Source: a virus
Length of the DNA stretch: 64,000 nucleotides
Virus genome (UHGV): UHGV-1366990
Strand: one strand, 5' to 3'
Below, in pieces: positions 14,732 through 58,778 of this stretch (positions are counted from its first letter, which is position 1; the number at the start of each line of letters is the position of its first letter). The notes beneath the pieces were generated by a model. That model did not search any database and was not told the origin of the DNA. It saw only the letters and a list, made by a program, of their open reading frames with translations. Made by a program: the position numbers and the translations under genes.

Positions 14732-14739
14732 TTTACTCC

Positions 14740-14759
14740 ATGCCCTCTTCGGAGGGCAT
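14740..14759 (+). terminator. stem-loop ATGCCCTC-TTCG-GAGGGCAT
   Basis: Perfect 8-bp stem with TTCG loop right after the sheath stop; no strong U-tract. Confidence 0.4.
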
Positions 14760-14773
14760 ATTGAGGTATTGTT

Positions 14774-15076
14774 ATGAAAAGTTTTTCTCAATTTTTAGCA
14801 GAAGCAGGTCTAAAAGGTGACCTTCAGAAAGTTAAAGACTCCGTGATTGAATGGTTGGAAGACCAAGATGTAAGGCTCAAAAAGGGTGATATCGAAAATG
14901 GAGTATTTGGAGATTTCTTCCGCATAACCATTGATGATTTTGAATATACATATAATGGCAAAGAGATTAAAGTATTCGACCTGAAGAAAGATAAACAGGT
15001 TGTTAGCAAGGCTGCTGGAACTCGAGAAGCCCCAGGTGAACTCGGTAAATTGTTTAAGAAATACAGCAAAGTGTAA
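14774..15076 (+). CDS. hypothetical protein (100 aa)
   Basis: ATG with GAGGT Shine-Dalgarno; Lys/Asp-rich; inside the insertion island between sheath and tube. Confidence 0.5.
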   Translation: MKSFSQFLAEAGLKGDLQKVKDSVIEWLEDQDVRLKKGDIENGVFGDFFRITIDDFEYTYNGKEIKVFDLKKDKQVVSKAAGTREAPGELGKLFKKYSKV

Positions 15077-15081
15077 CAAGA

Positions 15082-15109
15082 CCCCGCTTCGGCGGGGTTT
15101 TAAATTTTT
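15082..15109 (+). terminator. rho-independent terminator CCCCGC-TTCG-GCGGGG + T-run
   Basis: GC stem with TTCG loop followed by TTTTAAATTTTT. Confidence 0.7.
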
Positions 15110-15131
15110 CCAGATTATTTTATTGAATTAC

Positions 15132-15159
15132 TTTACTTCTTCAATAACTCACGTATAAT
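15132..15159 (+). promoter_or_regulatory. sigma70-like early promoter (TTTACT-16 nt-TATAAT)
   Basis: -35 TTTACT at 15132-15137 and -10 TATAAT at 15154-15159; part of a repeated cassette. Confidence 0.5.
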
Positions 15160-15207
15160 TCTAAACATAAGCAGTACGACACCAACTTGAAACGAAGGAT
15201 CTATATC

Positions 15208-15564
15208 ATGACCAAGACCGAAATTAACGCTATCCTGAAAGAAATCGGCCTCTGTAACCTGAAACGCCGCATCAATCCTTACCAGCCTGCAAAGCCAGTA
15301 CGCGACAGCCAGGGAAAGATGATAAAAGGGATCTACTGTGCAGATGTTGGTCCAATGACGGTGACCAGTCCACACATTGACAGATTTAACGCTATTGTTG
15401 GGGAGTTTTGTGGTAAGGTTCTGGGTAAACTGTCTAATGATTTATGCTCCCCAGATACCAAAGTTGTAGCTTTCGGGAGCCACCTCGTCACCTTCCACCT
15501 CACCACCTTCCGTACCCACGGTGATTATCATGTGTATTATGCTCAGGTTAGCATTCGCAAATAG
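15208..15564 (+). CDS. hypothetical early protein (118 aa)
   Basis: ATG within the conserved AAGGAtCTATATCATG start region; ORF track frame. Confidence 0.55.
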   Translation: MTKTEINAILKEIGLCNLKRRINPYQPAKPVRDSQGKMIKGIYCADVGPMTVTSPHIDRFNAIVGEFCGKVLGKLSNDLCSPDTKVVAFGSHLVTFHLTTFRTHGDYHVYYAQVSIRK

Positions 15565-15570
15565 TAGTTT

Positions 15571-15598
15571 ACCCCGCTGAGGCGGGGTTTTAGTTTTC
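15571..15598. terminator. bidirectional terminator CCCCGC-TGAG-GCGGGG + T-run
   Basis: Between convergent genes 15208..15564 (+) and 15603..15878 (-). Confidence 0.65.
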
Positions 15599-15602
15599 CA
15601 GT

Positions 15603-15878
15603 TCATACCGGATAAGACCACACCCCCCCCCAGATACACCCCAACCCGGTTTCTATCGCCAGTATATCCTCTGTTTTACCTTCTACATTGTATCCAAGTT
15701 TAAGGAATTTCTCTTTCCTGAGTTTACTATCAACCCAAGATCGGCATTCAGTTTCGGTCGTCGGGTTGTTATCCAACAAACCCGGATTGCGTTTCATCGT
15801 CCCCAGCATGAATGATTTACATTCGTCACTACAATACAACGCAGCCTTCCTGGTTGGGTGAACGGTTTGTGACAGCAT
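15603..15878 (-). CDS. homing-endonuclease-derived small protein (nuclease core absent)
   Basis: N-terminal YCSDECKSF and C-terminal GYNVEGKTEDILAIETGLGCIW match the ends of the 490-aa endonuclease at 21901..23373 (FCSDACKTF / GYDVEGKTESQLATEAGLVRIW). Confidence 0.5.
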   Translation of the reverse strand: MLSQTVHPTRKAALYCSDECKSFMLGTMKRNPGLLDNNPTTETECRSWVDSKLRKEKFLKLGYNVEGKTEDILAIETGLGCIWGGVWSYPV

Positions 15879-15950
15879 GAACAATTTTTATCGGGGAATG
15901 GCATAATAAATATCCTCACTTTGGAGTATTTTAACCCCCATTTATTTCAA

Positions 15951-15960
15951 AACTAAATAT
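15951..15960 (+). promoter_or_regulatory. late-promoter-like motif AACTAAATAT
   Basis: 26 nt upstream of the tail tube ATG. Confidence 0.4.
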
Positions 15961-15985
15961 TTACACTATTCAGAGGAGAACGACC

Positions 15986-16519
15986 ATGGCTACAGTTAAT
16001 GAATTCAGAGCAGCTATGTCACGCGGGGGCGGCGTTCAGCGCCAACACCGTTGGCGTGTGACTGTTAACTTCCCTTCCTTCGTGGCTGGAAGCGATACTA
16101 TCCGTGATGTTTCGCTGTTGGCGGTGACCACAAATACCCCAACAGGCCAGCTCGGGGAAATACTCGTCCCATGGGGTGGTCGTGAACTTCCATTCCCAGG
16201 CGACCGTCGTTTCGAGGCTCTGCCTGTGACGTTCATCAACGTCGTGGACAACGCTCCGTACAACGCATTCGAAGTCTGGCAGCAGTATATCAACGGCAGC
16301 AACAACAACCGTGCGTCTGCTAACCCAGATGATTATTTCCGTGATGTAATCATGGAACTGCTGGATGCTAACGACAACGTCACCAAGACCTGGACCCTTC
16401 AGGGCACCTGGCCTCAGAACCTCGGTCAGCTGGAACTGGACATGTCTGCAATGGACTCTTATACTCAGTTCACTGTTGACCTGCGTTACTTCCAGGCCAT
16501 TTCAGACAAGTCTCTCTAA
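15986..16519 (+). CDS. tail tube protein (T4 gp19-like)
   Basis: C-terminus LQGTWPQNLGQLELDMS...QFTVDLRY resembles recalled T4 gp19 IKGLWPTNVGELQLDWD...TFEVTLALDY. Confidence 0.85.
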   Translation: MATVNEFRAAMSRGGGVQRQHRWRVTVNFPSFVAGSDTIRDVSLLAVTTNTPTGQLGEILVPWGGRELPFPGDRRFEALPVTFINVVDNAPYNAFEVWQQYINGSNNNRASANPDDYFRDVIMELLDANDNVTKTWTLQGTWPQNLGQLELDMSAMDSYTQFTVDLRYFQAISDKSL

Positions 16520-21796: not shown

Positions 21797-21823
21797 TCGA
21801 ACAGTTGTCCTTAACCCTGACAA

Positions 21824-21848
21824 ACCCCGCTTCGGCGGGGTTTTTATT
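21824..21848 (+). terminator. rho-independent terminator CCCCGC-TTCG-GCGGGG-TTTTT
   Basis: Same hairpin type as at 15082; directly after the capsid gene. Confidence 0.75.
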
Positions 21849-21900
21849 TGTTCATATTATCGAACAGGTTATACTAGATACCATATGGAGGAGAATAATT

Positions 21901-23373
21901 ATGTATCAGGTAATCTGTAGTGTCTGCCATGAACAGTTCAAAGCATCCAGGAAAGATAAGAAATTTTGTTCAGATGCTTGCAAGACCTTCGCATCGAACA
22001 CCCTAAAGAACCTCCCGGAAGGTTTCCTTGAAGCAGTGAATGAATTGTCTGACGAGGAATCATATCGCCAATTTTTCTACAAATATATGTTTACCAAGAA
22101 CAACAAATTGGATATCCAAAAATGCAAATCTGAACTGCTTATGAAGCACATCAATGTAGACCTTTTAGCGTTCGCCAATACCCACAACACCCTACAAGAT
22201 TTGGCTTGTAAAGTCACAGCTTGGCTGTACAATAGAACCGTGAAAATATGCCCGGTGTGTTCCAAGGAAACCAACTTTTATATCAATAATAAAGATTACA
22301 GAACATATTGTTCTGAAGAATGTTATCAGGTTTCTATGTGTAAAGGTGGGATTGGTCGGAAAGCCATAGAGACTTCGAATATATCCAAATACGGGAGCTG
22401 CTCCACACTACAATTACCTGGTGTGAGGGAGAAGGCGTTGGCAACGTTACAAGAACGTTATGGTGTTGACAACCCTATGAAAAACTCGAACATACTAAAA
22501 CGTGCGTTGTTCAGCAATGGTTCTATCAGGAACAAGAAATCTTCTTATGAAAAGGAAATATCCGAGTTTCTCACCTCAATGGGAGTTGTAAACACTGTTT
22601 CTGATTACAGTATATTATCCGGTAAACAACTGGATATCTATTGCCCTGAACACAAATTGGCGATTGAATTTAATGGTCTGTACTGGCATTCAGAAGTTTT
22701 TAAAGAGAAACATTATCACCTGGAAAAGACTGAAATATGTGAATCTCAGGGTATCCAGTTGGTCCACATCTGGGAAGATGAATGGGTTGAGAAACAGGAA
22801 GTGGTCAAATCTCTTCTGAAAGCTAAACTTGGCATTAAAACGCCTGCGTCATATGCTCGCCAACACAAAGTCGTTTGGGGGAATATAAGCGGCTTGAGGG
22901 AGTTTTTAGACAACCACCACATACAAGGTTCCGTTTCTTCCACCCACCATTTATCGTTAATTGACAAGAGTGGGGTCATACAAGCCGTGATGCTATTCAC
23001 TAAAAGGAAAGATGGCCTGGAATTAGTCAGATTTGCCTCTAATGATTGCCACGGAGCATTCAGTAAACTTCTTTCACACTTCAGAAGAAAATTTGCCGGC
23101 ACCAAAATCTATTCCTTTGGGGATAGGTGTGTTGTAAGCAGGTTGTCCAACATTTACCTATCCCACGGATTCGTAGAAGAGGAAGTACAGAAGCCAGACT
23201 ACAAATATCACAAGCCTGGCACATTTATGCGTGAGCACAAATTCGGTTTCAGAAAAGGTTCATTTGCTCGCATGGGGTATGACGTAGAAGGCAAAACAGA
23301 AAGCCAGTTAGCAACCGAAGCCGGGCTGGTCAGGATTTGGAATTGTGGACTGATCAAATATGTCTTGAACTAA
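21901..23373 (+). CDS. freestanding homing endonuclease, Vsr-like PD-(D/E)xK type with N-terminal zinc ribbons
   Basis: Repeated CxxC pairs at the N-terminus; core LDIYCPEHKLAIEFNGLYWH matches the Vsr/DUF559-type signature; GGAGGAG Shine-Dalgarno; inserted after the capsid gene. Confidence 0.6.
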   Translation: MYQVICSVCHEQFKASRKDKKFCSDACKTFASNTLKNLPEGFLEAVNELSDEESYRQFFYKYMFTKNNKLDIQKCKSELLMKHINVDLLAFANTHNTLQDLACKVTAWLYNRTVKICPVCSKETNFYINNKDYRTYCSEECYQVSMCKGGIGRKAIETSNISKYGSCSTLQLPGVREKALATLQERYGVDNPMKNSNILKRALFSNGSIRNKKSSYEKEISEFLTSMGVVNTVSDYSILSGKQLDIYCPEHKLAIEFNGLYWHSEVFKEKHYHLEKTEICESQGIQLVHIWEDEWVEKQEVVKSLLKAKLGIKTPASYARQHKVVWGNISGLREFLDNHHIQGSVSSTHHLSLIDKSGVIQAVMLFTKRKDGLELVRFASNDCHGAFSKLLSHFRRKFAGTKIYSFGDRCVVSRLSNIYLSHGFVEEEVQKPDYKYHKPGTFMREHKFGFRKGSFARMGYDVEGKTESQLATEAGLVRIWNCGLIKYVLN

Positions 23374-23436: not shown

Positions 23437-23661
23437 ATGTACCTGAAAAAGACTGTGAAGAAGCCGAAAGGTGATGTTGTCGAGGTGTGCCTTATTGAGG
23501 CTTATGTTGACTCCTGGAATAACGAGCAGCGCTACTTCATGGTCAACACATTGGTGTATGTGCCAGCCTCTCACTTGAACCGTGATTTCATCACAACCGA
23601 GAACATCGTCCGCTGGGAGATTGCAACGCAGTCCGATATCGACGAACACAACATTCTTTGA
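23437..23661 (+). CDS. hypothetical protein (74 aa)
   Basis: Internal ATG of ORF 23407..23661 with GAGGG upstream. Confidence 0.4.
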   Translation: MYLKKTVKKPKGDVVEVCLIEAYVDSWNNEQRYFMVNTLVYVPASHLNRDFITTENIVRWEIATQSDIDEHNIL

Positions 23662-23678
23662 AAGGAAGAATCTATATC

Positions 23679-24122
23679 ATGTGTGATAAGAATTTCATTT
23701 TCATTAGTCCCGCCAAGAAACAGTTCTTCCATAGCTCCGTTGGGGACAAGGTGGAAGGTTTCCGTAAACTCAAAGATTATCGCCTGGCATGCGGTGATGT
23801 TGATTTTCAGAGCTTCGACAATGATCGCCAGGATTTGAACGATGAGGGTTGGACAGAAGTTCCATCCCCACAGTTTATCGACGTCAAGCTGTACTACATG
23901 AAGGACAGTGGGAAGTATTATTCAGAGGGTGTGATCAAAATCAACCGTGGGGAGGCCGAGGCCGAACCTGCTAAGTCCTGGATGGAGACTATGGATAAAA
24001 TCCGCTATCTGCTTGACTCAGGCAATTTGCCTGGTTTGGTTAAAGGTGCCCGGTATGAGGTCTTCGTGACCGGAGAAGGGCATCCAGGTGGGTATCCGGC
24101 GGTATTCCGCGTTAACAACTGA
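23679..24122 (+). CDS. hypothetical early protein (147 aa)
   Basis: ATG in the conserved AAGGAAGAATCTATATCATG start region. Confidence 0.55.
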   Translation: MCDKNFIFISPAKKQFFHSSVGDKVEGFRKLKDYRLACGDVDFQSFDNDRQDLNDEGWTEVPSPQFIDVKLYYMKDSGKYYSEGVIKINRGEAEAEPAKSWMETMDKIRYLLDSGNLPGLVKGARYEVFVTGEGHPGGYPAVFRVNN

Positions 24123-24367: not shown

Positions 24368-24393
24368 ATTTTAAATTTATTCAATAAACGGGG

Positions 24394-24421
24394 TTTACTT
24401 CTTCAATAAACCCCGTATACT
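24394..24421 (+). promoter_or_regulatory. sigma70-like early promoter (TTTACT-16 nt-TATACT) inside a hairpin cassette
   Basis: The -35 lies in the loop of ACGGGGT...ACCCCGT; same architecture as the cassettes at 15132 and 58291. Confidence 0.5.
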
Positions 24422-24470
24422 TCATTCCATAAGCAGCACAACACTGACTCTGAAATGAAGGAACTATATC

Positions 24471-24788
24471 ATGAACACTCCAAAAATCTCTATCTGGGCT
24501 TTCGACGAATTCACCGCATTTGACGCTCTGATTGCTACTCTGGGTTGTGCTCCTCAGGAAGCGGAAGACGATTACTCCCGCACTAACAAAGTCAAGATGG
24601 TGAACACCACTCACGATTTCAAACACGACCTGAACTCCTTCTTGGACGTTTTGGCTACCACCCTGCCAGAAGCTGACATGGCAACTGTGCGCGGCTCTAT
24701 CTTTAAGAAGAACGGCGAAATGCGCAAGTTAGCGGGTAAAGAAGTGAAATTCGCCGCCGACGGTTTCTTCATCACCATTGAATTCTGA
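24471..24788 (+). CDS. hypothetical early protein (105 aa)
   Basis: ATG in the conserved GAAGGAACTATATCATG start region. Confidence 0.55.
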   Translation: MNTPKISIWAFDEFTAFDALIATLGCAPQEAEDDYSRTNKVKMVNTTHDFKHDLNSFLDVLATTLPEADMATVRGSIFKKNGEMRKLAGKEVKFAADGFFITIEF

Positions 24789-24802
24789 TTGAGGTGCACA
24801 CC

Positions 24803-25132
24803 ATGACTTTTAAAGGCTTTGTAGCATTCGACGCAACCAAAACCAACGTGCTGAGCAATCCGCAGCTGGAAACCATCTCTGAAATGCGCCAGTGGGTGAT
24901 GGGGATCACTGGCCATCAAACCCGCAAAGATCTTGAAGCGGAGTTCTATATCGAACCTGCTGAAGTCTTCTTCAATCGCCCTGAAGATGAACCGTTCATC
25001 CGTCAAGACTTGGATGACAATGATATCACTCTCGCGATCTTCTCTGAAGCAAAAGCGGCTATGATCGTGGACGGCCTGTGTGATGAGTCCTTCACATACG
25101 ATGAATACTGCGATCAGTGTCAGGATCTGTGA
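24803..25132 (+). CDS. hypothetical protein (109 aa)
   Basis: First ATG in ORF 24794..25132. Confidence 0.5.
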   Translation: MTFKGFVAFDATKTNVLSNPQLETISEMRQWVMGITGHQTRKDLEAEFYIEPAEVFFNRPEDEPFIRQDLDDNDITLAIFSEAKAAMIVDGLCDESFTYDEYCDQCQDL

Positions 25133-25201
25133 TTTGTTCTAAACCTTTGAACAGGGTATGTTAACCGCATACCCTATCCCCTACAAATAGAGGACTTTAC
25201 C

Positions 25202-25546
25202 ATGGCAGCAGACACCAAACTGAACAAATCCGTGGAGATCCCCCACATCGTCAAATTCGAAAAGCCGAGTGAGCGCAAGCCACGCAAAACGCGCCGCCTG
25301 ACCACCAAACTGGATATTCTGAAACAGAAGTTCGGCGACCACAGCGTGTTCACTCGCATTCGCAATGCAATAAAGGAAGGGCGAACTGAGCTGGAGCTGT
25401 ACCGTCCGAACGGTTCGACACGTGCGTATCAGACCACCGACGGCTTACTGGAACTGATCCGCCTGAGCGGGATGACGATCGAACCTCGTTCGTCAGGCAC
25501 TCCTCTGTGCTCCCTGTACGTAATCGGCAATCTTGGGGCGCTGTGA
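25202..25546 (+). CDS. hypothetical basic protein (114 aa)
   Basis: AGAGGA Shine-Dalgarno; ORF track. Confidence 0.5.
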   Translation: MAADTKLNKSVEIPHIVKFEKPSERKPRKTRRLTTKLDILKQKFGDHSVFTRIRNAIKEGRTELELYRPNGSTRAYQTTDGLLELIRLSGMTIEPRSSGTPLCSLYVIGNLGAL

Positions 25547-33851: not shown

Positions 33852-34316
33852 ATGGCGCGTAATACGCTAGACATATTGAATATTTCAGCAGTCAACGATG
33901 AGGCCAGCATCGTTGATTGTATGGTTGAAGTTCAATTGAACCAAGATCGGCCAGGTATATTCCTGGGGATCAAGGAAACACTGAGTCGAATTGGGGTAAA
34001 CACGCGCCAAGAGCCGAATACTCTGTATCAGACTTGCCATATTCTTCATAAGTGTGGTAAGTATTATATCGTCCACTTTAAGCATCTATTTATGCTGGAC
34101 GGGCATTACAACGGATTTAACCGCGAAGATGTCCTGAGGATGAACCGAATCATCAAGCTGCTGGAGCAGTGGAACATGGTGAAGGTCATTCATCCTGAGC
34201 AGGTCACCGAAGCAGCCGATATGTCTCGCATTAAAGTGGTTAAACACGATCAGGTTCCTGAATGGAAGCTGGTTCCAAAATACATCATCCGGCCTACAAA
34301 GGCAAAAAGCGAATAA
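33852..34316 (+). CDS. regA: translational repressor RegA
   Basis: LYQTCHILHKCGKYYIVHFKHLFMLDG and EWKLVPKY match recalled T4 RegA; T4 gene order 45-44-62-regA is conserved. Confidence 0.85.
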   Translation: MARNTLDILNISAVNDEASIVDCMVEVQLNQDRPGIFLGIKETLSRIGVNTRQEPNTLYQTCHILHKCGKYYIVHFKHLFMLDGHYNGFNREDVLRMNRIIKLLEQWNMVKVIHPEQVTEAADMSRIKVVKHDQVPEWKLVPKYIIRPTKAKSE

Positions 34317-36497: not shown

Positions 36498-36612
36498 AGA
36501 TTCCCTTTACTTCGTTCTTCAATAACTCTTTTCAACGTATTATTGACCTCACTTAAACGAAGCGCCCTGGCAAACGGGGCGCACATTTGAACTGAAACAG
36601 GAAGACTACACC

Positions 36613-38631
36613 ATGTCAGAATTTAAGCCCTTCGCAGTAGCTGTTAACAACAACGTGCTGGCTATGTCAGCATCTGGTCTGTTCATGACCAACATCGATA
36701 AAGATGCTCTGTGGGATCTGTATCTGTCTTCTTTCCCTGCTGGTACCAACCCGCTCTACCGTGAGCGTACCGAGCACGACTGCACCTGCTGTAAACAATT
36801 CATCCGTAACATCGGCGGTGTGGTCACCATCGACGCCGACCTGAACGTGATCTCTATCTGGGATAACATTCAGCTGGGTAACGAATACGACGTTGTCGCT
36901 GCGGCGCTGTCAGCGTATGTTAAGCAGCACGCAATCGTCGACGTGTACTTCAACGACACCAAGAAAGTTGGTGTTGAGTCGAATCACGAAATGAAAGACG
37001 GTATTGTCCGCACCTACAACCACTTCCACACCGACCTGCTGGGCAGCTATGTTCTGCGGGCAGATACCATCGCTTCTAAGAAGGGTGAAATCCGCCAGGC
37101 GATTGAAGTGTTTGAGCGCGGCCTGCGTGAACTGTCTCTGGAATCGGCTGAAATCGTTCTGGAATTGATTGACCAGAATTCTCTGTATCGCGGTGAAGAG
37201 CACAAAGCGGCAGTGCAGGCGTTCGTGGTGAACAAGACCCTGTACGAACAAACTGCAGAAGAGAAACGCGCTCTGTGGGCTTGGCGCACTGGCTACCGTG
37301 CAAACGGTCATACCCCTCACGGCATTCGTAATACCGTGATTGGCTCTCTGCTGGTAGACCTCAATGAAGGCCGGGATCTGGAAACCGCCGTGAAGTCCTT
37401 TGAAGCCAAAGTCGCTCCGACGAACTACAAGCGCCCAACCGCGCTGGTCACGAAGTCCATGATTGAAAACGCGCAGAAAGAAGTCGAAGCGCTGGGCCTG
37501 ACCGATTCACTGGGTCGCCGTTATGCCGTGTATGACGATCTGACCATCAACAATGTTCTGTTCGCCGATCTGGCAGCTCAGAAGAAGATGGACCCGTTTG
37601 CTCAGCTGGCGTCTGAAGTGAAGACTCCGACCAAGTCCCTGGACAAGGTTGAAGAGATCACGATCGACGACTTCCTGACCAACGTGTTGCCAAAGGCGCA
37701 TTCCCTGGAAGTACTGGTTGAAAACTCTCACATTGGCAACCTGATGTCCCTGATCGCTCCGGCTACCGCAGGCGCTCCTAACCTGTTCAAGTGGAACAAC
37801 GGCTTCAGCTGGTCGTACAATGGCGAAGTGGCCGACTCCATCAAAGAGCGCGTGAAGACCGCAGGCGGTAATGTCGACAGTTTCCTCCGTGTGTCACTGG
37901 CTTGGCATAACAACGACGACCTGGATCTGAGCATGAACGATCCTCTTCACAACCACGTGTATTATCACAACCGTCGTTCGACAACTGGCGCAACTCTGGA
38001 CATCGACATGAACGGTATGGACGGCATTGATCCAAACCGCCGTCCGGTGGAGAACATCTTCTTCAGCGATGAACGCAAGCTGCGTGATGGTCTGTACGAG
38101 TTCTATGTCACTAACTTCAGCCAGCGTGAAACCTGTGATATGGGCTTCGAAATCGAAGTTGAATACAAAGGCCAGACCAAGCGTTTTTCGCATCCTGGCC
38201 TGAAGCACAAAGATCGCACTCTGGCTGTTGTGATTGATGTCCGCGCTGGACAAGTGGTAGACATCCGTTCTACCCTGAAAGACGACGCTCGCTCTCAGGA
38301 AATCTGGGGCATCAAGACCTCCGTCTTCCAGAAGGTACAGCTGGTTCTGAACTCACCAAACCATTGGGACGGCGAGCAGACTGGCAACAAGCACGTGTTC
38401 TTCATCCTGGAAGGTTGTGCTAACCCTGTCGGCACCCGTGGTTTCTATAACGAATATCTGAAGCCGGAACTTGATAAACACCGCAAGGTTTTTGAAATGT
38501 TAGGCGGTAAGATTAAAGTACAGCCAAGCACTGAGCAGCTGTCCGGTCTGGGCTTCTCTACCACCCAACGCAACCACGTGTTCGTGAAGGTGAGCGGTTC
38601 GTTCAACCGCACTGTGAAAGTTGTGTTCTAA
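36613..38631 (+). CDS. hypothetical protein (672 aa), function unknown
   Basis: CAGGAAG Shine-Dalgarno; upstream TTTACTTC...TTCAATAA cassette-like element; no P-loop seen. Confidence 0.7.
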   Translation: MSEFKPFAVAVNNNVLAMSASGLFMTNIDKDALWDLYLSSFPAGTNPLYRERTEHDCTCCKQFIRNIGGVVTIDADLNVISIWDNIQLGNEYDVVAAALSAYVKQHAIVDVYFNDTKKVGVESNHEMKDGIVRTYNHFHTDLLGSYVLRADTIASKKGEIRQAIEVFERGLRELSLESAEIVLELIDQNSLYRGEEHKAAVQAFVVNKTLYEQTAEEKRALWAWRTGYRANGHTPHGIRNTVIGSLLVDLNEGRDLETAVKSFEAKVAPTNYKRPTALVTKSMIENAQKEVEALGLTDSLGRRYAVYDDLTINNVLFADLAAQKKMDPFAQLASEVKTPTKSLDKVEEITIDDFLTNVLPKAHSLEVLVENSHIGNLMSLIAPATAGAPNLFKWNNGFSWSYNGEVADSIKERVKTAGGNVDSFLRVSLAWHNNDDLDLSMNDPLHNHVYYHNRRSTTGATLDIDMNGMDGIDPNRRPVENIFFSDERKLRDGLYEFYVTNFSQRETCDMGFEIEVEYKGQTKRFSHPGLKHKDRTLAVVIDVRAGQVVDIRSTLKDDARSQEIWGIKTSVFQKVQLVLNSPNHWDGEQTGNKHVFFILEGCANPVGTRGFYNEYLKPELDKHRKVFEMLGGKIKVQPSTEQLSGLGFSTTQRNHVFVKVSGSFNRTVKVVF

Positions 38632-39069: not shown

Positions 39070-39097
39070 AACCCCGCCATGTGCGGGGTTTCTTTTT
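39070..39097 (+). terminator. rho-independent terminator CCCCGC-CATGT-GCGGGG-TTTCTTTTT
   Basis: GC stem plus U-tract. Confidence 0.7.
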
Positions 39098-43490: not shown

Positions 43491-43493
43491 CAG

Positions 43494-43522
43494 AAGTCCC
43501 CAACAAACGTTGGGGATTTTTA
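43494..43522 (+). terminator. terminator TCCCCAAC-AAAC-GTTGGGGA-TTTTT
   Basis: 8-bp stem plus U-tract. Confidence 0.65.
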
Positions 43523-43532
43523 CTTTTAGGGG

Positions 43533-43561
43533 TTTACTTCCTCTAAGGAATGTCCTATTAT
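43533..43561 (+). promoter_or_regulatory. sigma70-like early promoter (TTTACT-17 nt-TATTAT)
   Basis: Same TTTACTTC -35 context as the other cassettes; followed by TTCAATAA. Confidence 0.45.
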
Positions 43562-43612
43562 TCAATAACTGGCGAACGATGGGTTCACCGGGTTGAAAGG
43601 TAAGATTATATC

Positions 43613-43852
43613 ATGAAGAACAAAATGGTCGAAACTTCAGTAGAGATTGATCGCAATTGGGGATTGCTCCGCGCTAAAGGGTTCCGCCGTGTGTATGCGA
43701 CCAAAGAAGTCTACGCACAGCGTCGTGACGTTATCATCAGCAAGAAAGGCAAAGAGTGGGTTGCTGAAGAAGTTGATGTCGAGACAGGCATCGTAGGAAA
43801 GGTAAAGGCCAAGGCCGCGATCCTCTTCGCTCTTCTGAAGCACATCAGTTAA
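43613..43852 (+). CDS. hypothetical basic protein (79 aa)
   Basis: ATG in the conserved AGGTAAGATTATATCATG start region. Confidence 0.5.
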   Translation: MKNKMVETSVEIDRNWGLLRAKGFRRVYATKEVYAQRRDVIISKKGKEWVAEEVDVETGIVGKVKAKAAILFALLKHIS

Positions 43853-43911
43853 TTCTATAACTTTGGGCGGGGTATGATTACCCCGTCTATTTGAAACCAA
43901 GAGACTATATC

Positions 43912-44286
43912 ATGAAAAAGTTAATCCTCGCTGTTGCCCTGCTGGGCGCTTCCTTTGCTGCTGTTTCCGCCCCTCCTGTCATCACCGGAGTGTCTACCAA
44001 CGGTGTTTATGCTTTCAAGGCGTATGGCCAAGACCTCGTTCTGTATAAGAACGGGAAGATGATTGAGCGCTGCGTATCAGACGACGTGAATCGTGGGATC
44101 GACAATCAGGGTAGCCCATACGTCCTGGACATCTATTCCTGCTCCAACGGGACGAAGTCCTTTGGCGTCAAGACCTTTGGCAACGTCGCCGACGGTGGCT
44201 GGGGCTTCATGTTCGAAACCCGCAACCACCACCCGGTCAAGACCATGCAAGAAGAGTTCTTGATCTCTGTCGGGGGTACGTTATGA
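43912..44286 (+). CDS. exported protein with signal peptide (124 aa)
   Basis: MKKLILAVALLGASFAAVSA-PP: signal peptide with AxA site; conserved start region. Confidence 0.6.
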   Translation: MKKLILAVALLGASFAAVSAPPVITGVSTNGVYAFKAYGQDLVLYKNGKMIERCVSDDVNRGIDNQGSPYVLDIYSCSNGTKSFGVKTFGNVADGGWGFMFETRNHHPVKTMQEEFLISVGGTL

Positions 44287-45212: not shown

Positions 45213-45291
45213 ATACGATAGTTTATTGAATCCCTTTACTCAACATGGTGAGCCGCCTATCATTTCATCCAATGAAATAAGGAGAATCGCC

Positions 45292-46343: not shown

Positions 46344-47210
46344 ATGCTCCTGACCAAAACAATCGCTGCGGCGATTATCGAAAAGAATAAGGCTTTTGCC
46401 CCCAACGCAGCCAAAGTTATGTTGGTACACGAAGACGCTCGCGTGATCTTCGCCGAGAAGTTCGAGATGGGTGCGAAGTTCTGGTATGCCGACAACTTAC
46501 GTGAGAGCAAACTTCAGGGTATCATCCACAAACTGACTCTGGTCGCCAAGCGTAATGACCAGGGTGACTGGGTCGGCGTTTCTGACTTCAGTACGAAGAT
46601 CACCCCAAAGGCTCCGCTTTCTCGTCAAGAGCGCATTCTGGAAGCCCAGGAAAAGCTGCGTGCGGCTCGGAGTACCACAAAGGCGAAACCAGATACAAGC
46701 CCTGTCATCAAGCCAGCGGTTGTTCCTAAGTCCAAATACCTCCCACCCGTGAGTCAAAAGGCTGTGGAGCAATTGGTTGAGAAGCGCAAGGGTGACGTTG
46801 TGATGAAGTCTGACTCTTCAGTGGAGCCGTTCAAGCCGGATCCAGCAGAAGTACAGGCGCTGGCAGAAAAGGTAAAGAATTCACAATTCATTTCCCTGCG
46901 TGAACTTGAACCGCCTACTCGCCGTCGTATCGCCAACGAGCTGTTTGTGTCGTTCAGGTCGGATGGTAAGATCATCCTGTGCAAAGCCCTGCGCGATGCA
47001 ATCCCTTGGACAACTCTGAACATGATGGTCACTCGCGACTTCAAGCGTTTTGGTATCATGCAAGGCAAGGACTACAACGTCAACCAGAGCGGGACTTATG
47101 TTAATCGCGCCATGTGTGACAAACTGACCTTCCCAGAAGATACCGGAACGATCCGTGTCGTTCTGAATTGGGACGACAAGCTGAACATGTATGTTGGCGA
47201 TTTCCAATAA
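46344..47210 (+). CDS. hypothetical protein (288 aa)
   Basis: ATG one codon after GTG 46341; Lys/Pro-rich central linker. Confidence 0.55.
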   Translation: MLLTKTIAAAIIEKNKAFAPNAAKVMLVHEDARVIFAEKFEMGAKFWYADNLRESKLQGIIHKLTLVAKRNDQGDWVGVSDFSTKITPKAPLSRQERILEAQEKLRAARSTTKAKPDTSPVIKPAVVPKSKYLPPVSQKAVEQLVEKRKGDVVMKSDSSVEPFKPDPAEVQALAEKVKNSQFISLRELEPPTRRRIANELFVSFRSDGKIILCKALRDAIPWTTLNMMVTRDFKRFGIMQGKDYNVNQSGTYVNRAMCDKLTFPEDTGTIRVVLNWDDKLNMYVGDFQ

Positions 47211-47266
47211 TCAATAACCTCGGGCGGCTTATCATAAAGCTGCCCTTTCATTTGAGAGACTATATC

Positions 47267-47929
47267 ATGGAAAAACTTTATTCTATTATCGTCGGTCCTG
47301 ATCCTGACGGATTATTCTTCGCCCCGTTGTCTTATATTGCCCACGCCCGTATCGGTAGCCATTACGCATATTGCACACGTGGCCACGACGGTTCCAATAT
47401 CCTCCATTATAACCGCATGAACGATTTCCTGGCACTTCAACCAGAAGATGTTGTGCTGGCGCGTCGCGTGTTCATCGACTTCAACGCTATGCACAACAAC
47501 GAAATTGACGCTCGCTATCATGCCATGCGTTCTATGGAAGGGGGAGACTGCATTTATCGCATCGACCATTTTAGTGAGTTTACCGAATGTATTGATTGGT
47601 TCGTTTCAGAAAAGACGTTGGGTGAAAGAATCGTCACAACTCCGTGGGCGCATGCGGAACAACTTCGTGTGTCTACCGATGCGTACAAAGAAGTCGACAA
47701 TCTGTGCAACAAGTTCCGCATCTCGGTGACCTGTAATCAAGACCTGGGCGAAGAGATACAATGGACAGCTGAGTCTCCTCATTTCAGTGGCCTGGTGATG
47801 ACGGCCGAAACCCGTTCCCGTGCTGTTGTCCAGTTAGTACTCTGGGCGTTCTACCAGCGCACCCCGTTCTCATACATGGGACAGAAAGAGATTGATGAAC
47901 TCCTGAAGTCTCACGCGGTGGAGGTGTAA
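47267..47929 (+). CDS. hypothetical protein (220 aa)
   Basis: ATG in the conserved GAGAGACTATATCATG start region. Confidence 0.55.
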   Translation: MEKLYSIIVGPDPDGLFFAPLSYIAHARIGSHYAYCTRGHDGSNILHYNRMNDFLALQPEDVVLARRVFIDFNAMHNNEIDARYHAMRSMEGGDCIYRIDHFSEFTECIDWFVSEKTLGERIVTTPWAHAEQLRVSTDAYKEVDNLCNKFRISVTCNQDLGEEIQWTAESPHFSGLVMTAETRSRAVVQLVLWAFYQRTPFSYMGQKEIDELLKSHAVEV

Positions 47930-48496: not shown

Positions 48497-48775
48497 ATGA
48501 ATCGTACTGAATTTGTTGCCCACATTGCTTCGACCCAGAATATCACCAAAGGCGAAGCGGAGAAAGTAGTGGCATCCTTTATCAACGGTGTTAAAACTGC
48601 AGTTGCTGCGGGCGCATCTGTACAGCTGGTCGGCTTCGGTGCGTTCGAAGTGAAACACCAAGAAGCGCGTGAAGGCCGCAACCCTCTGGACGGCCAGACC
48701 ATTCAGATCGCGGCGAAAAACGTTGTGAAATTCAAAGTGGGCGAAGGTCTGAAGAACGCTGCCAACGGCAAGTAA
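48497..48775 (+). CDS. HU/IHF-like histone-like DNA-binding protein
   Basis: GFGAFEV...R.GRNP.DGQTIQIAAK...F is the HU-family signature; GGAGAAA Shine-Dalgarno. Confidence 0.8.
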   Translation: MNRTEFVAHIASTQNITKGEAEKVVASFINGVKTAVAAGASVQLVGFGAFEVKHQEAREGRNPLDGQTIQIAAKNVVKFKVGEGLKNAANGK

Positions 48776-57007: not shown

Positions 57008-57622
57008 ATGACGATGACAACGTTGAAGGCCATGGCCTTGTCCGTGACCTTTACCATTGCCAGCGGGAATGTGCACGCTTCCCAAAATACAAGTCAATGT
57101 GTTTATAATTTCTCCGAGCAACAACTTAATACGATGGCAACCGCCTATCACGTAGGCAAGACACAAGATCTTGGCTACACGCTGGCCGCCATATCTTGGC
57201 GAGAGAGCCGCGCTGGTGAAGATGTAGTGTCAATGCGATACGGCCTCAAAGCGGCCAACATGGGAGCCTTTCAGAACAAGGTGAAGACAGTTGGTGATCG
57301 CGAAGGTTGTAAGAATCGCAAGTGCTATGCCAATGTCGCCATAAAGTTGCTGACCGACCAAGAATATGCCGCGCAAGCCGCCCTCGATGAGATGCAGTTC
57401 TGGCTGACCTATCACAATCAGAATATCCGCAAATCCCTCTCCTCTTACAATGCTGGCTTCGCCCGTAATCCTGCATCGAACGCTTATGCTGCCGACGTCG
57501 TGAAGAAAGCTAAATATCTTCAGAAATGTGTGTCCTTCGAAGGCCGGACCATCTCCGAGGTAGATCCTCAGGTGATCGCCATGAACAAGCACACAATAGA
57601 GAAACTGAAGAGGACAAGATAA
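57008..57622 (+). CDS. lytic transglycosylase (SLT domain) with N-terminal signal/SAR-like segment; endolysin candidate
   Basis: AISWRES (catalytic Glu-Ser), AANMGAFQ, YNAG motifs; hydrophobic N-terminus MTMTTLKAMALSVTFTIASGNVHA. Confidence 0.6.
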   Translation: MTMTTLKAMALSVTFTIASGNVHASQNTSQCVYNFSEQQLNTMATAYHVGKTQDLGYTLAAISWRESRAGEDVVSMRYGLKAANMGAFQNKVKTVGDREGCKNRKCYANVAIKLLTDQEYAAQAALDEMQFWLTYHNQNIRKSLSSYNAGFARNPASNAYAADVVKKAKYLQKCVSFEGRTISEVDPQVIAMNKHTIEKLKRTR

Positions 57623-58260
57623 TGAACATCACTCCATCTCAGGCCGGATATGAACATATCTTGGTCTTCATTGCTCTACAGGGTGCGAAGGAAGGCATCA
57701 TCGTATCCGAGTACTCAGGCACGGTTCGCCTTGCTGATTATGTCGCACCGGAGGCATTTATCAAGAAGTGTATTGACGCATGGTGCCTCTATGCCCTCGG
57801 CACGTATACTACCCCTCCTGAGGGTGAGTTGTTGTTTACTGTACCGACTCCGGCTGCTGGCGATACGGACGCGATCTTTGCCGATATGCTGGCCAAGGGG
57901 TATCTGGTGTATGACCTCACCCACGATGTCTATTCCTTCACCTCGCTGAACACCGTGTTTGGATTCACCATCACATCTGAAGCCAACATCCCTGACTGGG
58001 GTATTTTGGCGTGGGGTGTTGACGGTCTGGGTGCAACCTACGCATCGTCTGACGTCGGTGCGGTTCTGATTGATGAGGGTGTCACCATGGAGCAGTACCT
58101 TGCCCAGTTCCCTCAGCACAATATCACAGGCAGCGACATCATTTTGGTCCAGCCTGGCGCTATCGCTCTACCCCGTTTGGTGGGTGGATGGAAGCCTCAG
58201 CTGAAGGACATCATCGCAGGTATTCGATCCCACATTCCGGTTGTGAATCCGACGCCGTAA
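57622..58260 (+). CDS. hypothetical protein (212 aa)
   Basis: ATG overlapping the upstream stop. Confidence 0.5.
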   Translation: MNITPSQAGYEHILVFIALQGAKEGIIVSEYSGTVRLADYVAPEAFIKKCIDAWCLYALGTYTTPPEGELLFTVPTPAAGDTDAIFADMLAKGYLVYDLTHDVYSFTSLNTVFGFTITSEANIPDWGILAWGVDGLGATYASSDVGAVLIDEGVTMEQYLAQFPQHNITGSDIILVQPGAIALPRLVGGWKPQLKDIIAGIRSHIPVVNPTP

Positions 58261-58272
58261 AAATAATTCAAT

Positions 58273-58292
58273 AAAAGGGGCTTTTGCCCCTT
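58273..58292 (+). terminator. terminator AGGGGC-TTTT-GCCCCT
   Basis: Hairpin whose 3' flank TTTACTTC is the -35 of the next promoter. Confidence 0.6.
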
Positions 58293-58319
58293 TACTTCTT
58301 CAATATCCTTCCCTATACT
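58291..58319 (+). promoter_or_regulatory. sigma70-like early promoter (TTTACT-17 nt-TATACT)
   Basis: Downstream leader CATAAGCAGTACGACACCAACTTGAA is identical to the leader at 15167-15192. Confidence 0.5.
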
Positions 58320-58367
58320 TCATTCCATAAGCAGTACGACACCAACTTGAATAGCAGGAACTATATC

Positions 58368-58703
58368 ATGACACAACTCAAGAACTTCACCGCCGATGAC
58401 ATGTTCACCTTCCAGGGTGCTGAGCACTTTGCTGACGGCTCTGTACCTCGCATCTACTACTTCTCCGACGAAGAAATGGAAGATTTCTTCGCCCTGATGG
58501 AAAAGGACTACGAACCAGACGACTTCGTTTATATCATCCATCACGCCGAAGGACTGACATTGGGTTGGACGGCCAGCAATGAACCAGAAGAAGTAAACTT
58601 CCCTGAAGGTATCATGTCAGAGCGCGTCGAATATCTACTGGAAGCCCTGGACCCCCACACCCTCCCGCTCTGGGCGATGTCTGTAGCCCAAGTTCAAAAA
58701 TAA
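58368..58703 (+). CDS. hypothetical acidic early protein (111 aa)
   Basis: ATG in the conserved GCAGGAACTATATCATG start region. Confidence 0.55.
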   Translation: MTQLKNFTADDMFTFQGAEHFADGSVPRIYYFSDEEMEDFFALMEKDYEPDDFVYIIHHAEGLTLGWTASNEPEEVNFPEGIMSERVEYLLEALDPHTLPLWAMSVAQVQK

Positions 58704-58778
58704 GATAAGGGGGCTGACGCTCCCTTTTGGTTTCGCTAATTAGAAGAAACCGCCGTTAATTCAGTCAGGAGATATAAA

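Follow-up and report, generated by a model that had tools for sequence, protein, structure and literature searches.

A repeated non-coding cassette of an Ackermannviridae (ViI-like) phage is described here, found in a stretch of 64,000 nucleotides (nt) of the viral genome UHGV-1366990; this whole stretch is called the window below. Three strong copies are present: at 15132, between the genes of gp18 (tail sheath) and gp19 (tail tube); at 24394 (site A), in the variable stretch from the major capsid protein (MCP) gene to gp3; and at 58291 (site B), 3' of a DUF7270 gene, the LIMEstone1 orthologue of which encodes a confirmed virion protein. It is probable, in our judgement, that the cassettes are family-wide early promoter units read by the sigma-70 RNA polymerase of the host, and that the same units double as homology linkers for gene exchange. 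The window has ~98% identity to Escherichia phages vB_EcoM-ZQ1 and LHE287, and its nearest classified relatives place it in the subfamily Aglimvirinae; its GC content is ~49% and the + strand carries nearly all of the genes. A sequence-only reading of the window had likened its cassettes to those of T4-type phages; judged by its relatives the window belongs to the Ackermannviridae and is strictly not of the T4 type (Straboviridae).

The three copies share one architecture, as that reading had proposed. The 15-mer TTTACTTCTTCAATA occurs exactly at 15132, 24394 and 58291 only, always on the + strand, and any further match needs three mismatches. All three copies were recovered when the repeats were checked by word match and alignment, and a nhmmer profile constructed from them finds each again in the window at E ~1e-24. 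The order of the elements in each copy is a hairpin, an AT-rich tract, the -35 box TTTACT, a spacer, a -10 box TATAAT or TATACT, a leader of ~42 nt, the Shine-Dalgarno sequence AAGGA or CAGGA, the short spacer CTATATC and the ATG. The exception to this order is at site A, where the hairpin at 24388-24416 encloses the -35 box instead of standing upstream of it. The spacers are 16, 16 and 17 nt long and the -10 boxes are TATAAT, TATACT and TATACT at 15132, 24394 and 58291 respectively, and the promoter consensus can be written as TTTACTTC-N14/15-TATAMT. The start region GGAnCTATATCATG is present in each copy, with AAGGA or CAGGA followed by CTATATCATG, and the fixed ribosome-binding region of the cassettes is (A/C)AGGAnCTAyAyyATG. 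The components of the three copies are the following.

15078 to 15101, + strand: left terminator hairpin, AAGACCCCGC-TTCG-GCGGGGTTTT; the top terminator call, with a fold of -17.3 kcal/mol (z = -3.0).
15102 to 15131, + strand: AT-rich tract with an inverted TTCAATAA box, which is TTATTGAA at 15120-15127.
15132 to 15159, + strand: predicted sigma-70-type promoter, TTTACT, a 16-nt spacer containing TTCAATAA, and TATAAT; 10 of 12 consensus positions, the best in the region.
15166 to 15207, + strand: predicted 5' leader, consisting of the 26-mer at 15166-15191, TGAAACGAAGGA (with the AAGGA Shine-Dalgarno sequence at 15195-15199) and the CTATATC spacer.
24368 to 24470, + strand: site A cassette, with a TTCAATAA box at 24380 and a 10-bp hairpin at 24388-24416 around the -35 box.
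24394 to 24399 (-35), 24416 to 24421 (-10), 24428 to 24470 (leader) and 24458 to 24462 (Shine-Dalgarno), + strand: boxes of the site A cassette.
58262 to 58367, + strand: site B cassette, with a TTCAATAA box at 58267 and a hairpin at 58274-58293.
58291 to 58296 (-35), 58314 to 58319 (-10) and 58326 to 58367 (leader, with the 26-mer at 58326-58351), + strand: boxes of the site B cassette.

The sequence-only reading had also pointed to an identical 26-nt stretch in two of the leaders. The identity holds and is exact: CATAAGCAGTACGACACCAACTTGAA stands at 15166-15191 and at 58326-58351, each of the coordinates given earlier having been one base too high, and it did not occur once in 100 shuffles. 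This last result and the nhmmer values leave next to no credence for repeats by chance, and the products of the three genes directly downstream argue equally against relics of gene duplication; beyond the existence of the repeats themselves nothing speaks for either origin. These products have no similarity to each other and are assigned to separate PHROG families (13016, 6516 and 9866), none with a known function, so gene duplication was ruled out as the source of the repeats, and the repeated part is regulatory only.

The hairpins are more stable than shuffled sequence not only at 15078-15101 but also at 24388-24416 (z = -5.35) and 58274-58293 (z = -4.7); a fourth tested fold gave z = -4.6. 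A related locus near 43494-43615, which had been named along with the three copies, was likewise found to follow the same plan, with the same -35 context and start region and with a different leader.

43492 to 43612, + strand: site C, a predicted terminator and promoter with the -35 box at 43533, a 17-nt spacer and TATTAT.

Site C has in common with the cassettes the hairpin, GGGGTTTACTTCC and the TTATATCATG start region, and the -35 box lies in the loop of its second hairpin.

The cassettes were compared across GenBank phage records, since protein-seeded scans of IMG/VR gave just a handful of Ackermannviridae loci, and a scan of IMG/VR with the bare 15-mer returned mostly unrelated chance matches and was uninformative. 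By BLAST the 58291 cassette was found in 276 and the 24394 cassette in 281 phage records, that is, in essentially every Ackermannviridae genome, including Kuttervirus, Agtrevirus, Limestonevirus, Taipeivirus and Serratia phages. Most of the records listed carry the cassette in 2-3 places (1-4 overall), and in each of six genomes from four genera a profile search placed one copy at the orthologue of site A and one at that of site B. No match was present in 5,426 E. coli genomes, which ruled out a promoter taken from the host. Over site A (24368-24470) the identity to the window is 100% in LIMEstone1, 99% in Se-H, 98% in CBA120 and 90-91% in Taipeivirus; for comparison it is 87-91% in the MCP gene, 70-84% in the gene directly upstream and 69-76% at the third codon positions of a shared neighbour gene. 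From ~24348 the identity rises sharply, and as far as the ATG it keeps within 93-100%. The site B hairpin has an invariant stem, in which a compensatory GGGAC/GTCCC pair was seen in one genome, and a four-base loop that varies in seven of the eight genomes. Site C is 97.6% identical in LIMEstone1 and 93.5% in CBA120, the adjacent ACP gene 69-91%. In an in silico alignment of 18 copies from four genera the -35 and -10 boxes are invariant, as is the spacer motif TTCAATA in all 18.

From the identity of the two 26-mers a recent recombination had been suggested, a step which does not follow. The same exact 26-mer stands at the orthologous site B of Dickeya phage LIMEstone1 and of the Kuttervirus phages CBA120, Se-E and aagejoakim, and since it is conserved across the family its identity is no proof of a recent event. 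An exchange of another kind can be recognized in the alleles. The spacer, -10 box and discriminator of the 15132 copy (AACT-CACGTATAATTCTAAA, the 'gamma' allele) are of the CBA120/Se-E site B type and are unlike those of either site A or site B of the window itself; the Mutine copy at the position equivalent to 15132 has a different allele, and Taipeivirus has a site-B-type leader at its site A. Because the alleles of spacer, -10 box and leader are mixed between sites and genera, the segments of the cassette are, on this comparison, reassorted among sites and lineages, and nothing marks the reassortment as recent.

The fixed positions raise the simplest alternative, namely that these are ordinary conserved promoters which share, or have converged on, one consensus, that the gene swaps next to them are general phage mosaicism, and that they have no role in recombination. 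We hold this explanation to be unlikely, although it is the one to be taken most seriously among the alternatives. Two of the three copies do stand at fixed orthologous positions throughout the family, and T4 early promoters are known to share an extended consensus past the hexamers (PMC2988021). On the other side, a divergence of 0-2% over 103 nt against 25-30% at silent sites is hard to explain by ordinary promoters, and so is the reassortment of spacer, -10 and leader alleles just described.

The conservation continues through the leader at nearly every base, which could be accounted for at the RNA level. The leader and start region might be an RNA operator for a translational regulator, such as a homologue of RegA, or for a nuclease, which would put a regulon of early genes under coordinated post-transcriptional control. 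A clear homologue of this translational repressor is encoded at 33852-34316 (PF01818, E = 2e-34). Furthermore, the 10-mer CTATATCATG stands at ~8 gene starts (10 matches against 3.2 +/- 1.7 expected), and the longer TTGAAAnGAAGGAACTATATCATG is also found after plain hairpins, at 43850-43914 and in CBA120. However, the leaders have less stable folds than shuffled sequence (z = +1.55, +2.28 and +0.78), which ruled out a structured leader or riboswitch, and no Rfam family matched at the gathering threshold across the whole window. In T4 the RegA protein represses genes 44, 45, 62 and regA itself. The starts of the corresponding genes of the window (gp45, gp44, gp62 and regA) are without the CTATATCATG motif, hence a RegA operator was not supported, the clamp, clamp-loader and regA genes being its expected targets. 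Moreover, an RNA operator leaves unexplained the equally strong conservation upstream of the predicted transcription start. We regard the RNA-operator explanation as improbable in place of the promoter and linker functions, with which it could coexist.

A DNA-level explanation is suggested by the octamer TTCAATAA. Together with its complement it was found 11 times in the window against 1.97 +/- 1.26 expected (at 15120, 15140, 23382, 24380, 24402, 36518, 40303, 43561, 45223, 48417 and 58267), always in intergenic positions and often directly 5' of a GC hairpin or within a promoter spacer. One of these boxes precedes the gene at 48497-48775, the positional counterpart of genes named 'DNA binding protein' in LIMEstone1 and CBA120. 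The octamer may be a protein-binding box, and its enrichment, taken with the invariance of the spacer, hints at a putative extra factor. The cassette as a whole could then be a DNA site for a phage transcription or shut-off factor, acting through the TTCAATAA boxes and the buried -35 box, or a replication-priming promoter like oriF/oriG of T4. The enrichment near hairpins and in spacers, the invariant TTCAATA and a conservation beyond the requirement of a promoter are in its favour; nevertheless there is no GC-skew or composition signal at the cassette sites, the conserved ribosome-binding region is unexplained by it, and the proposal is purely inferential. We give it only slight weight, less than the RNA operator.

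The evidence for a role of the cassettes in gene exchange comes from what lies behind them. A check by comparative genomics for gene gain or loss flanked by cassettes had been proposed, and both replacements and insertions or deletions (indels) were found exactly at the cassettes. At sites A and B replacement prevails, within slots bounded as follows.

24471 to 25132, + strand: site A variable slot, two open reading frames (ORFs) of 105 and 112 amino acids.
25133 to 25201, + strand: site A 3' linker, the hairpin GGGTATG...CATACCC, then CTACAAATAGAGGACTTTACC abutting the ATG at 25202-25204.
58368 to 58726, + strand: site B variable slot, the 111-amino-acid 'MTQLK' gene (phrog_9866) and its own terminator at 58707-58726.

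In different phages the slot of site A is occupied by three unrelated families (phrog_6516, phrog_10263 and phrog_17538), and its 3' linker, the hairpin plus CTACAAATAGAGGACTTTAYCATG (25133-25204), is near-identical in Se-H, CBA120 and LIMEstone1. The slot of site B, closed 3' by the conserved linker TTTCGCTAATTAAGGGAAACCG, has three alternatives: the MTQLK gene in 85 records, the MKIIL gene (91 amino acids, phrog_5704) in 141 records, and, in the aagejoakim group, a phrog_13016-like gene with 31% identity to the product of the 15208 gene of the window. All three occur within Kuttervirus and two of them within Taipeivirus; the alleles are thus mixed within genera and the pattern cuts across the phylogeny. 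In the 50-kb regions sampled each slot allele is confined to its own slot. Since cassette and 3' linker are near-invariant while the flanks diverge, we infer that they act as homology linkers.

The sharpest boundaries were found between aagejoakim and Se-H and between IME250 and Klebsiella cp18, with 90-100% identity to the ATG and unrelated sequence beyond. So abrupt an end of the identity, right at the ATG and in two genome pairs independently, is not what would be expected of ordinary promoters amid general mosaicism. The comparison of CBA120 with Se-H is in favour of that alternative and against the linker role: the exchanged block runs through the upstream DUF7270 gene (76% and 90% identity to the window, respectively), so the cassette is not always the crossover boundary. 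This gene (57622-58260) is 90% identical in Se-H and just 76% in CBA120, and aagejoakim is similarly close over the last ~650 nt, a pattern which, judged from these identities, indicates block exchange between subfamilies, larger than the cassette.

Some further observations belong to these two sites. The site A ORFs (24471-24788 and 24794-25132) correspond to the N- and C-terminal parts of one 154-amino-acid ORF of CBA120 and Se-E, with 39% and 59% amino acid identity, the gene having been split or remodelled behind a 98%-identical cassette. Antisense ORFs over the cassettes (e.g. 24381-24626 on the - strand) were rejected as artefacts because their starts fall in the non-conserved slot genes. 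Beside site B, the gene at 57008-57622 is labelled 'RegB' in LIMEstone1 and aagejoakim; it gave no RegB match, is SLT-like with a weak sub-threshold similarity (PF01464, E = 4e-4), and its orthologue is named Vs.1-like in the CBA120 record, therefore 'RegB' is probably a misnomer.

The copy at 15132 differs from the other two, since it belongs to a portable unit of terminator, promoter, gene and terminator (15078-15593). Its remaining parts, and the terminator it resembles, are these.

15208 to 15564, + strand: module cargo gene, 118 amino acids, phrog_13016, function unknown.
15571 to 15593, + strand: right terminator hairpin, a direct repeat of the left hairpin.
21822 to 21843, + strand: terminator of the MCP (gp23) gene, the same sequence as the left hairpin of the module.

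The cargo gene was found in only 42 phage records, 33 of them Ackermannviridae. Its place in the genome is one of three: the gp18-gp19 gap in the clade of the window and in maane, KE31 and Salmonella phage Mutine; the position right after the capsid gene in Klebsiella cp18 and, by inference, in the other 14 Klebsiella records; and, as a gene of the same family, the slot behind site B in the aagejoakim group. At every placement examined a copy of the cassette lies 5' of it. The terminator AAACCCCGC-loop-GCGGGGTTTTT is nearly the same after gp18 and gp23 in every genome sampled, and the indels are bounded by it. At gp18 LIMEstone1 has a single terminator, whereas in Mutine and the window cassette and gene stand between two terminators, the duplicated terminator forming a direct repeat of 26 nt in Mutine; at gp23 IME250 has a single terminator, whereas Klebsiella cp18 has the module between two terminator copies. 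The gp23 terminator at 21822-21843 is likely to be the source of, or a partner for, ectopic recombination. A cargo family which follows a cassette copy to three non-homologous positions, and inserts bounded by duplicated terminators, are both difficult to reconcile with ordinary promoters. The sequence-only reading had described the cassettes as mobile modules like the promoter-early stem-loops (PeSL) of T4-type phages. Of this the architecture and the replacement, gain and loss of genes at the cassettes were borne out; mobility was not for two of the three copies, which are not recently mobile and occupy orthologous sites in ~280 records with 80-100% identity.

The surroundings of the module point to repeated insertion at this place.

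15603 to 15884, with 15885 to 15985, - strand: homing endonuclease remnant (F-LimVIII-like), abutting the module.

The remnant at 15603-15884 matches the C-terminus of phrog_3339, a homing endonuclease family, and BLAST against LIMEstone1 and Mutine indicated that both ends are kept around a ~1.45 kb internal deletion. Mutine and LIMEstone1 have the endonuclease gene in intact form, LIMEstone1 without the module, hence insertion of the module is separable from the endonuclease. In LIMEstone1 the gp18-gp19 gap contains only the terminator and the homing endonuclease gene, and in RPN242, CBA120 and IME250 a GIY-YIG gene instead; on these comparisons the gap is a hot spot. An ORF of 100 amino acids (14774-15076, + strand), with a hairpin ahead of it at 14738-14759, lies between gp18 and the module. 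Neither Pfam nor PHROG gave a match for it; LHE287 has it too, whereas Mutine, RPN242 and LIMEstone1 lack it, and by this distribution it is a second, nested insertion at the gp18-gp19 site.

A large free-standing endonuclease-like gene (21898-23373), the positional counterpart of F-LimVII, directly follows the terminator of the capsid gene. Its product has weak, sub-threshold Pfam similarity to the nuclease domains MTES_1575, DUF559 and Vsr, and a C-terminal motif (GYDVEGKTE...GL.RIW) in common with the remnant at 15603-15884. At 39072-39088 stands a third member of the CCCCGC-loop-GCGGGG terminator family, with the loop CATGT; the genes on either side of it are convergent or adjacent, and CBA120, Se-E, Se-H, IME250 and Kp cp18 all retain it. 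Distant homologues of the cargo gene were found in T4-like Straboviridae, and the one in Bragavirus is a lone forward gene among reverse genes, behind GTTTAC-17-TGaTATTAT, a textbook T4 early promoter.

The mechanism that we infer for early promoter units with a linker function is as follows. Host RNA polymerase would start at ~15166, 24428 and 58326 immediately after infection, while the stem-loop, which overlaps the -35 box at sites A and C, would end or attenuate incoming late or early transcription and so insulate the unit. The open, CA-rich leader (~42 nt, presumably selected to be unstructured) and the fixed Shine-Dalgarno spacing would allow efficient translation, and the joint result would be an immediate, strong and transcriptionally insulated expression of the first downstream gene. 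The cassette, the 3' linker and the shared terminators could serve as short homologies for the recombination system of the phage. Recombination between co-infecting relatives would replace the slot gene at sites A and B, and occasionally the whole terminator-promoter-gene-terminator unit might be placed ectopically at the gp18 or gp23 copies of the terminator.

Several points weigh against early promoter units of this kind. The hexamers match the consensus at just 9-10 of 12 positions and the TGn motif is absent, and sigma-70-type sites are not clearly above shuffled sequence (21 against 13.4 +/- 3.9 and 19 against 17.4 +/- 4.4); the hexamers are unremarkable alone, therefore the case rests on repetition and conservation. 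The hairpin of site A has no U-tract, and that of site B was called as a terminator solely on the opposite strand. The near-perfect conservation, spacer and leader included, exceeds the needs of a simple promoter and leaves room for an additional function. The authors of the CBA120 paper could not identify early promoters by informatics (PMC3184105), and the searchable literature holds no transcript mapping (transcriptome or transcription start) or reporter data for any Ackermannviridae promoter. Finally, with 2-3 closely similar copies in a genome, and another 2-3 that have diverged, the cassettes are far fewer than the dozens of PeSL copies in RB49 and phi1.

A bolder proposal goes beyond replacement between relatives, and we put it forward tentatively, with clearly less confidence than the combined promoter and linker function. 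The cassettes and 3' linkers could be universal crossover points of the Ackermannviridae for small early genes (of host takeover or anti-defence), and their identity would be kept by this use; exchange would extend across hosts and even to T4-like phages, and circular units bounded by terminators would integrate at any gp18 or gp23 terminator. If this were true, it would amount to an integron-like gene-cassette system without an integrase, the first outside the Straboviridae.

Weaker relatives of the cassette are also present in the window.

36503 to 36612, + strand: degenerate cassette relative, TTTACTTC-GTTC-TTCAATAACTC-TTTTCAA-CGTATTAT with a spacer of ~26 nt, followed by a hairpin and a cassette-type start region.
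45235 to 45263, + strand: promoter-like site TTTACT-N17-TATCAT, with TTATTGAAT just before it.

The copy density in 64 kb is accordingly three strong copies plus site C, the 45235 site and the degenerate 36503 relative. In this last, which stands upstream of a 672-amino-acid gene, the -35-like box is shifted by ~10 bp (about one helical turn), and its LIMEstone1 counterpart is annotated as 'putative promoter'. Additionally, a second class of intergenic linker was recognized, which consists of a stop codon, (T)TCnATAAC, a GC hairpin and TTTGAAAnGAAGGAACTATATCATG; it was found at 43850-43914, 47209-47269, 36560-36615 and 23640-23681, and in the CBA120 locus L130 at ~15790-15900 and 16340-16480. 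In its TTTGAAAnGAAGGAACTATATCATG part the 3'-terminal third of the cassette leader recurs at many gene starts, here behind plain hairpins.

The features that we consider most striking are a non-coding 103-mer conserved beyond the capsid gene, and the clean footprints, in the form of duplicated terminators, that a travelling promoter-gene unit has left. The 103-mer is 98-100% identical across genera, a degree of constraint which promoter function alone hardly explains. The consensus TTTACTTC-N14/15-TATAMT plus leader provides a concrete and testable description of putative early signals in ViI-like phages, formerly called unidentifiable by informatics, and the cassettes would flag small genes that are likely expressed first after infection. 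Ackermannviridae are widely used in biocontrol, typing and reporter-phage engineering, and the conserved slots could be natural, transcriptionally insulated sites for the insertion of payload genes.

Among known systems the closest likeness is to the PeSL cassettes of T4-like myoviruses (Arbiol et al. 2010, PMC2839356; Comeau et al. 2014, PMC4122927), and the idea that regulatory linkers can be vehicles of gene exchange would thereby be extended to another family of large virulent phages. In both cases an AT-rich region and a sigma-70-like promoter are combined with a GGGG...CCCC-type stem-loop upstream of or overlapping the -35 box (PMC2839356), the unit ends in a Shine-Dalgarno sequence and start codon, and the conservation spans ~100 bp. 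Both lie beside small genes without a known function where the genome is variable, and both are linked to insertion, deletion and replacement between close relatives, gene and cassette forming a portable unit. In contrast to PeSLs, the cassettes of the window belong to Ackermannviridae and not to Straboviridae, two of the copies sit in fixed orthologous slots with 90-100% identity across genera and subfamilies, the unit includes a long, conserved and unstructured leader, and the junctions of the module lie in duplicated late-gene terminators. For the window the promoter and terminator activities are predictions from sequence, and mini-circles would be hypothetical.

The literature that could be searched contains no description of these cassettes beyond the promoter predictions in one GenBank record, that of LIMEstone1 (HE600015; Adriaenssens et al. 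2012, PMC3296691). There the counterparts of sites A and C carry the label 'putative early promoter' and that of site B 'putative middle promoter', with terminators at B and C, as predictions only. The record agrees with our assignment of promoters to A, B and C, but the -10 box of site B is placed within the sequence read here as leader, and the record says nothing of the repeats, of how widely they are conserved in the family, of the leader they share or of a connection to the shuffling of genes.

T4 early promoters (Liebig & Rüger 1989; Hinton 2010, PMC2988021) resemble the cassettes in that they are strong and of sigma-70 type, have a -35 box of the TTTAC kind with AT-rich DNA upstream, and share a consensus which reaches past the hexamers; the cassettes differ in the absence of a TGn extended -10 and in the invariant spacer TTCAATA. 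The CBA120 paper reports that homologues of Alt, ModA, MotA and AsiA are missing from the family (PMC3184105); RefSeq nonetheless labels CBA120 orf140 'RNA polymerase ADP-ribosylase'.

The term moron (Juhala et al. 2000; Hendrix and co-workers) is used for a gene that carries a promoter and a terminator of its own and has been inserted where two genes are neighbours in related phages (PMC2839356). The 15078-15593 unit lies in this way between gp18 and gp19, where LIMEstone1, RPN242, CBA120 and IME250 have no such gene, and judged from its layout the third copy of the cassette with its cargo is a moron by this definition. It differs from classical morons, which are without conserved flanks and presumably arrive by illegitimate recombination, in its homologous terminators and its family-wide cassette promoter, and furthermore the phage of the window is virulent, hence there is no expression from a prophage. 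Taken as regulatory units of the Ackermannviridae that resemble both PeSLs and morons, the cassettes are largely supported by these comparisons.

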